This document shows, piece by piece, positions 10,313 through 10,742 of a stretch of DNA of 64,000 bases. Below the pieces are notes generated by a model. That model had not been told where the DNA came from, made no database searches, and saw only the letters and a program-made list of their open reading frames with translations. Origin of the DNA: Eledone cirrhosa (Eukaryota); the NCBI GenBank assembly GCA_964016885.1, contig OZ024753.1, forward strand, positions 8,804,001 through 8,868,000. The letters are read 5' to 3'. The position numbers and the translations under genes are program-made. How positions within the stretch are numbered: position 1 is the first letter of the stretch; each line of letters begins with the position of its first letter.

Positions 10313-10742
10313 TGTAGATGTTATATTTAATTTGTTGGGATACAACAAGCAAAATATTGACATACCCTGAAAAAAATATTGACATACCCTGAAAAAAATG
10401 CAACCTTCACGGTTGGAGTCTCCAGGAGACTCGCATGGTTATATATGTATATATGTATATATGTCTCCAGGAGACTCCAACTGTGAAGGTTGCATTTTTT
10501 TCAGGGTATGTCAATATTTATTTATAAAACTAATCTATATTATATTTTATCTGATGAAAGCTCACCATAATCTGCCTTGGTGACCCTTGAAATATGTATA
10601 ATAAAATAAATATGGTTTTATAAATATAGTTTCCATTTGTTAATATATTGTATATTTACTCCAATAATTGGTTGAGTGCTTTATATCAGTTATAAAAATA
10701 TTTTGCTTGTTGTATCCCAACAAATTAAATATAACATCTACA
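10313..10742 (+). mobile_element. Second copy of the hammerhead-bearing fold-back element
   Basis: Terminal inverted repeats TGTAGATGTTATATTTAATTTGTTGGGATACAACAAGC, internal inverted repeat 10375-10517, homologous to 3749-4186. Confidence 0.75.
10543..10608 (+). ncRNA. Type I hammerhead ribozyme
   Basis: TATTTTAT CTGATGA AAGC TCACCA-loop-TGGTGA CCCTT GAAA TATGTA TA ATAAAATA; perfect 8-bp helix I. Confidence 0.85.

Follow-up and report, generated by a model that had tools for sequence, protein, structure and literature searches.

A hammerhead ribozyme fold under purifying selection in the spreading lineages of Hydra-clade Penelope-like elements of Eledone cirrhosa

A truncated, partly inverted element copy and its hammerhead

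The window analyzed here is a stretch of 64,000 nucleotides of Eledone cirrhosa DNA (contig OZ024753.1). Judged by its sequence, the insertion at positions 10313 to 10742 is a short pLTR copy, truncated at its 5′ end and partly inverted, of a Hydra-clade Penelope-like element (PLE), a retrotransposon, and belongs to subfamily A (Table 1). It is bordered by (TA)n tracts on both sides, and its nearest relatives display 96 to 98% identity. The hammerhead in the copy is of type I and has a palindromic helix III; its CUGANGA core, GAAA, and the NUH triplet (AUA) are present in type I order. The AUA cleavage site is placed by the established hammerhead numbering. In relatives of the main arm, the inferred transcription start reads ACTATCC. 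A local duplication of ~23 nt precedes the inverted segment that lacks the hammerhead.

Table 1. Features of the insertion at 10313 to 10742 and of related insertions in the window
Feature	Positions	Strand	Remarks
Final 46 nt of the element in inverted orientation (long 3′ end)	10313..10358	-	100% identical to 10697-10742
Inverted start-site-proximal segment without hammerhead	10370..10432 (right end approximate)	-	
Main arm	10466..10742	+	From a few bases past the inferred transcription start to the long 3′ end
Helix I, 5′ strand	10543..10550	+	8 bp with 10601-10608
Hammerhead core CUGANGA	10551..10557	+	N7 alone changes on inherited branches
Helix II	10558..10588	+	3 bp, conserved C-C mismatch, distal stem, 10-nt loop
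GAAA, helix III, and predicted AUA cut site	10589..10600	+	8-nt palindromic helix III at 10592-10599; predicted cut after 10600
Helix I, 3′ strand	10601..10608	+	
Short 3′ end site, taken as the first start of reverse transcription	10645..10659	+	+45 to +59 from the cut site
Long 3′ end site, taken as the second start of reverse transcription	10735..10749	+	+135 to +149 from the cut site
Subfamily B insertion, two inverted arms	3740..4188	.	Hammerheads 3804-3844(-) and 3999-4039(+)
Subfamily C insertion, short inverted arm	44534..44840	-	Hammerhead 44691-44727(-)

The core at 10551-10592(+) is one of four related hammerhead cores found in the window, which are distributed among three insertions, each flanked by (TA)n. 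All four combine an 8-bp helix I, CUGAUGA, a long helix II, GAAA, an 8-nt palindromic helix III, and a predicted AUA site. A loose core pattern matched the window 13 times for 3.2 matches expected, a number reached in none of 100 shuffles. No Rfam hammerhead model matched 10450-10700, and none was present among the best 150 of 226 matches listed for the whole window, which were mostly microRNA models on microsatellites; for a hammerhead of the present form, these models carry no information. Folding of single copies was modest (z values of -0.1 to -2.1), and thermodynamic dimer folding yielded no consistent active dimer.

A preliminary description of the locus had argued for selection on the ribozyme fold from three window helices II said to differ in sequence and always to pair. 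As a whole, this description is partly confirmed: the hammerheads and the quoted helices are present, and one of the three helix examples did not hold. ATACCAT/ATGGTAT was located at 4010-4016/4025-4031. TCACCA/TGGTGA does occur at 10562-10567/10578-10583 but is not a subfamily state, being found in 1 of 81 A-type contexts, the commonest helix II of that type being GCACCA/TGGTGGC with a bulged base (49/81). The pairing as quoted is a shifted register created by two changes in the 10313 to 10742 copy that do not occur together in its relatives, and this register leaves a 1x2 loop instead of the C-pyrimidine mismatch ascribed to it. The helix quoted at 44675, GTACCAAA/TTTGGTAC, would require a 2-nt loop; the sequence instead forms a 7-bp stem closed by a 4-nt loop, and the subfamily of that copy has U-U as its first helix II pair (32 of the 183 copies analyzed below).

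Other repeats were noted in the window. A second, unrelated minimal hammerhead-like motif with a short helix II and a weak helix I lies at 2931-2954(+) in another repeat family, for which 3236 candidates were found, 40 of the 40 scored matching at ≥94%. The frame at 23865-24398(-) resembles a Helitron Rep/helicase remnant, and we take the fragments at 5698-6216, 44169-44500, and 46036-46452 to be C-terminal parts of LINE-type reverse transcriptases; the first two of these belong to one family, ending at (TA)n. tRNA-like SINE heads stand directly past (TA)n tracts at 3056-3100, 4527-4614, 10995-11300, and 49094-49173.

An abundant Hydra-clade element with a long 3′ UTR

In long copies, the hammerhead-bearing end is preceded by an AT-rich 3′ UTR of 1.0 to 2.0 kb and, upstream from it, by an ORF in the same sense; the hammerheads of subfamily A lie mostly 1.3 to 1.5 kb past the ORF, and each subfamily examined has its own upstream ORF in long copies. 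The region upstream of the hammerhead was considered as the end of the ORF and rejected, since the ORF stops 1.0 to 2.0 kb earlier. The single ORF comprises a reverse transcriptase followed by a C-terminal GIY-YIG-like endonuclease, the latter read from motifs: a Pfam search of the ORF gave no endonuclease match and detected RVT_1 weakly in one of six pieces, relatives carrying PF26215. Besides the reverse transcriptase motifs, the ORF contains RWR (K to R), DKT, a CxCx5C linker (CNCRNKSNC), CxLC, and CKH. RW(K/R), DKT, CxCx5C, CxxC, and CxH are the Hydra-clade diagnostics given in section 11 of PMC8557442, and we therefore assign the driver on motifs, with published reference proteins compared by eye, to the Hydra clade as a Penelope-like element with an ORF for a reverse transcriptase and a C-terminal endonuclease. 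The Neptune clade was ruled out by the CxCx5C form of the linker, which is not CX2-5CxxC with CCHH. A non-LTR retrozyme, made of noncoding tandem monomers of a few hundred bases, was also ruled out, the upstream sequence consisting of a 3′ UTR and an ORF.

The full layout, pLTR-5′ UTR-ORF-3′ UTR-pLTR, was present in 16 of the 21 elements examined and also at locus L230. Tandem or inverted pLTRs, (TA)n targets, and a hammerhead in the sense orientation make this a Hydra-type structure. The pLTR-to-pLTR unit of 3.7 to 4.2 kb exceeds the length below 3 kb that is general for Hydra elements, owing to the long 3′ UTR. The two repeats of one element differed at 0 to 8 of ~248 sites, and divergence between them was below the median divergence from other elements in 16 of 16 cases. 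In subfamily E, an uninterrupted ORF of 737 amino acids was found in 5 of 14 copies (L427, L431, L434, L435, and L438), and 23 top-score copies were 100% identical over 231 nt covering the 5′ UTR and the ORF start; this subfamily looks recently active. A sister lineage (L454 to L475), also Hydra-like, has a protein 47% identical, the helix III ATGCGCAT, and a longer helix II.

The exact core pattern had 21,356 matches in the 3.0-Gb genome, and the control pattern had none. A core-independent downstream pattern had 40,269 matches, patterns for two other clades had 2,445 and 1,228, and the exact pattern of the sister lineage had 20,446, all of these being counts of arms rather than of insertions, many of which carry two arms. 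Hammerhead-bearing ends of these elements thus number tens of thousands genome-wide. Hydra-clade elements, so far described from a few families, prove to be a major recent component of this genome, some with intact ORFs.

The present families share with the Hydra-clade PLEs of PMC8557442, including Hydra-1_Obim of Octopus bimaculoides, the same motifs, the C-terminal endonuclease, the (TA)n targets, and, close to the 3′ end, a type I hammerhead in sense orientation whose helix III is palindromic; in the families listed there, the cut often follows UA and the first helix II position is U-U in several. Hydra-1_Obim, the sole octopus family in the supplement of that paper, is 2507 bp in length and has a different hammerhead and four copies ending at the same site. 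In contrast, the present families span 3.7 to 4.2 kb with a 3′ UTR of 1.0 to 2.0 kb, have a long helix II in which a C-pyrimidine mismatch is fixed, and have left tens of thousands of ends; their tail is ~90 nt, versus the 30 to 40 bp indicated in PMC8557442. Animal non-LTR retrozymes also carry a type I hammerhead and, in the portions of PMC7229834 and bioRxiv 10.64898/2026.07.22.740005 considered here, are short units derived from or mobilized by PLEs. Unlike them, the short copies of the present families form no tandem monomers, and the long copies have their own upstream ORF.

Pairing and core are preserved on inherited branches

Selection was analyzed in copies having the long 3′ end, 187 in number and 183 once duplicates were removed, which were coded by structural position. 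Changes were mapped by parsimony on two trees, built from the downstream flank columns only or from all columns. Branches with at least three tips, representing replicating lineages, provided the inherited changes, and terminal branches provided the private changes, mostly postinsertion decay.

Among the 183 copies, N7 of the CTGATGA motif, which the preliminary description had taken to be invariant, was T in 168, G in 6, A in 6, and C in 3. Nor do the helices II always pair, as it had stated, since, genome-wide, position 8 is mismatched (A-A or G-A) in one abundant subfamily. The helix I differences are G-U compatible as described, the differing pairs being A-U or G-U. Retention of a C-pyrimidine mismatch at the fourth helix II position is a rule that holds between lineages, although the C-U of the 3999 copy is not a family state: position 4 is C-C in 169 of the 183 copies, including the other arm of the insertion that contains the 3999 copy, and C-U in the sister lineage. 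No inherited change affected this mismatch in the 183 copies. The first helix II pair was A-U in 119 copies, U-U in 32, G-U in 24, and G-C in 2. The conserved G10.1-C11.1 pair, a feature of the metazoan PLE hammerheads of PMC4209133, is not conserved in the present families; the hammerheads listed for Hydra elements in PMC8557442 are often U-U at this first pair, so that G10.1-C11.1 does not define the Hydra form. Shared with the hammerheads of PMC4209133, in the part considered, are the type I topology, a long helix II, a short palindromic helix III, and predicted dimers. Helix III occurred as three recurrent 8-mers (244, 162, and 7 contexts), all of them self-complementary, which fits pairing between two hammerheads. 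One of the forms, set apart by GC-rich substitutions extending into the 2-nt "loop," marks the sister Hydra lineage.

Sixteen pairs of helices I and II were scored. In the flank-only tree, the outcome was paired for 25 of 29 inherited stem changes versus 57 of 137 private ones (P = 1e-5); the full tree gave 29 of 34 versus 33 of 108, and thresholds of 5 and 10 tips agreed with the pairing result obtained at 3. Under neutrality, a single change is expected to preserve pairing in ~21% (A-U) or ~33% (G-C) of cases, and controls with slid pairing gave paired outcomes of 9/19, 11/26, 15/32, and 17/28. Changes from Watson-Crick pairs led to G-U rather than A-C in a ratio of 11:0 on inherited branches and 25:32 on private ones (P = 5e-4). 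Since the inherited wobbles are G-U and never A-C, the selected strand is the sense RNA. Compensation through wobbles was traced at helix II positions 2 (A-U to G-U to G-C), 5 (G-C to G-U to A-U), and 6 (U-A to U-G to C-G and back). Considering 27 recurrent variants, 97% of the cells were paired, a level attained by 0 of 500 shuffles (92.3% after shuffling), and slid pairings gave 38 to 50%. Six of nine helix II pairs were altered on both sides in these variants, a two-sided count (6 versus 4.4) that 48 of 500 shuffles also reached; in helix I, changes were one-sided (G-U) only, with two-sided changes in 0 of 8 pairs. Full two-sided compensations are few, amounting to roughly 7 to 9 independent events, and inherited mismatches exist at helix II positions 1 (U-U), 8 (A-A or G-A), and 9 (U-U).

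The 12 fixed core columns underwent no inherited change, versus 1.42 per flank column and 3 at N7, a zero count that is partly circular because the 183-copy set needed a near-intact core and came in part from the exact-core search. At the flank rate, 17 inherited core changes would be expected (9.5 excluding A/T changes). In a core-independent check, with a sample anchored downstream, six subfamilies accounting for 183 of 242 copies all kept the core. Private mutation rates, computed in samples chosen without regard to the core, were 0.87% in the core (19/2195), 1.04% in the helices (78/7499), and 0.98% in the flanks and loop (87/8897) (P = 0.7). Inserted copies decay neutrally, and it is precisely in the spreading lineages that purifying selection acts on the fold and the core.

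A purely mutational origin of the covariation, through shared ancestry, DNA hairpin-templated repair, or A-to-I editing copied into DNA, could account for the small number of independent events and for the restriction of helix I variation to A/G, which editing could produce. However, shared ancestry is taken out by the tree-based count, DNA hairpins give no ground for the 11:0 preference for G-U over A-C, and the C>T, T>C, and G>A changes of helix II lie beyond sense-strand editing. The flanks display no A>G excess on inherited branches (16 versus 21 T>C), and the private changes do not show such a bias. We consider this explanation, which is largely refuted for helices II and III, very improbable.

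The proposal that master lineages were selected for the ribozyme fold is therefore supported by inherited changes that keep the pairing and spare the core, private changes doing neither, even though the three-copy comparison originally advanced was weaker evidence than stated, one of its three helices being a private variant. That the selection was for self-cleavage we infer from the conserved core. The consensus families of PMC4209133 are rich in covariations, described there qualitatively; in the part of that study considered here, inherited and private changes are not separated and the ends of copies are not used as evidence on templates.

Copy ends point to two templates

The 3′ ends cluster at two sites ~90 nt apart, 81 of 182 at the short site and 94 of 182 at the long one. 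The 5′ ends were located in a core-independent sample of 145 copies (147 minus 2 that could not be aligned). Twenty-two of them stop within -2 to +2 of an ACTR(C/T)C site located 64 to 90 nt before the core, 54 run upstream, 57 fall between the site and the core, 11 fall in the hammerhead, and 1 is near the cut site. The ACTR(C/T)C site resembles an initiator; one clade carries TATAAATA ~30 nt upstream from it. Of the 141 run-through copies, 129 have C and none has G as the base preceding the site, whereas a G precedes it in 19 of the 54 junction copies, against a background of 9%, bearing in mind that 7 of the 19 extra Gs possibly come from a fold-back arm and 1 from a false motif, and that about a dozen of the 54 are unmatched run-through copies. 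An untemplated G in L1 and SVA copies has been attributed to the cap in the part of PMC3287187 considered. The stop at ACTR(C/T)C combined with the extra G indicates that the short copies likely derive from capped, uncut RNA.

Such an origin would be compatible with a fold selected as a binding platform for the protein of the element beside the priming sites, catalysis being incidental. The fixed C-pyrimidine mismatch could then be a protein contact, and the anole hammerhead, as presented in the part of PMC11167929 considered, is protein assisted and dispensable for insertion in vitro. Nonetheless, the 12 catalytic positions are all invariant, N7 alone being free, and helix III has stayed palindromic through four changes, which is the pattern of a dimeric catalytic core. 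We hold a platform role to be rather improbable.

Repeats directly upstream of the ORF end differently. Among 57 such repeats, obtained from 60 loci of which 3 had none, 31 extend beyond the start site, a single one ends at it, and none ends at the cut site; start-site stops thus represent 1 of 32 cases, versus 22 of 76 in the core-independent sample (P = 0.002). Run-through of the upstream repeats, together with the near identity of the two repeats of an element, indicates that long copies come from a continuous template. Most simply, this suggests a circle formed by cleavage and ligation, as in the proposal of PMC4209133 that cleavage is followed by ligation to circles and more-than-unit reverse transcription. 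The run-through is also compatible with multimeric transcripts or strand transfer.

The hammerhead might accordingly cut for a purpose that involves no circle, namely, release of units from multimeric or host read-through transcripts or provision of a 3′ end for LTR-like strand transfer. The same selection data speak for this, PMC11167929, in the part considered, envisages a multimeric mRNA that is primed internally, and strand transfer also yields seamless, near-identical repeats. Yet a cut linear template predicts 5′ ends at the cut site, of which the copies bear no trace (1 of 145 near it and 0 of the 57 upstream repeats), and strand transfer at the cap predicts that upstream repeats stop at the start site, where the proportion was the 1 of 32 noted above against 22 of 76. 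Cutting of this kind strikes us as unlikely.

We favor as the probable explanation that the fold is kept in replicating lineages and decays in inserts because the predicted self-cleavage yields offspring able to transpose again. A promoter just upstream of ACTR(C/T)C would direct synthesis of a capped RNA bearing hammerheads at both ends. Reverse transcription of the uncut RNA from an internal site back to the cap would generate short, promoterless copies, such as that at 10313 to 10742. When two hammerheads pair through the palindromic helix III, perhaps aided by the protein of the element, both would cut, and ligation would close the unit of 3.7 to 4.2 kb into a circle. Reverse transcription around this circle would pass its start point and copy the promoter in front of the ORF. 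If only promoter-bearing, circle-derived copies found new lineages, this would explain selection on the ribozyme even though most copies come from uncut RNA. In its full form, the PLE hammerhead would be a fertility switch: uncut capped RNA would give rise to the tens of thousands of promoterless, dead copies, and dimer cleavage and ligation would produce a 4-kb circle as the sole route to promoter-bearing offspring. To this full form, tentatively proposed, we give somewhat less than an even chance. Were it true, it would settle why the ribozyme is conserved although insertion in vitro can do without it, and both templates would be on record in the 5′ ends of genomic copies.

The Poseidon element of Anolis, analyzed in PMC11167929, resembles the present elements, in the part considered, by two internal reverse-transcription starts that define the tail, by uncut RNA as the main insertion substrate, and by AT-rich targets. 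It belongs to another clade, and its hammerhead overlaps the ORF start. Hammerhead mutants of the anole element inserted normally in vitro, which counts against the circle model. The reason for conservation of the ribozyme is left open in that part of PMC11167929, whereas the present data point to the long, promoter-bearing copies. In the part of PMC8557442 considered, the function of PLE hammerheads is unclear, and they are possibly mere parasites of the elements. With selection found in the spreading lineages, the 5′ ends point to the step that needs the hammerhead, which turns this open question of function into specific assays. The hammerheads of Hydra elements (PMC8557442) and the covarying families (PMC4209133, qualitatively) are already in print, as far as the parts considered extend; the Hydra families, very abundant and long tailed, the test for selection at the level of lineages, and the two-template signature are new. 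A literature search largely confined to open-access journals found neither a selection test on PLE hammerheads nor a cap-derived G in Penelope copies.

Additional Penelope-like sequences were encountered beside the present elements. Locus L224 contains an open Hydra-type frame of 830 residues at 2793-5282(-), and no hammerhead of the present family was matched in the 7.2 kb downstream of it; this frame probably belongs to another family. Other Penelope-like ORFs lie at L189:4801-6667(+), which has a CxxxxCxxC linker of Neptune type by motif, at L197:4609-6628(+), and at L186:3599-5728(-). At L405, an end of the sister lineage is located directly upstream of the 5′ UTR of a subfamily E element, an arrangement that is possibly a chimera or a nested insertion.
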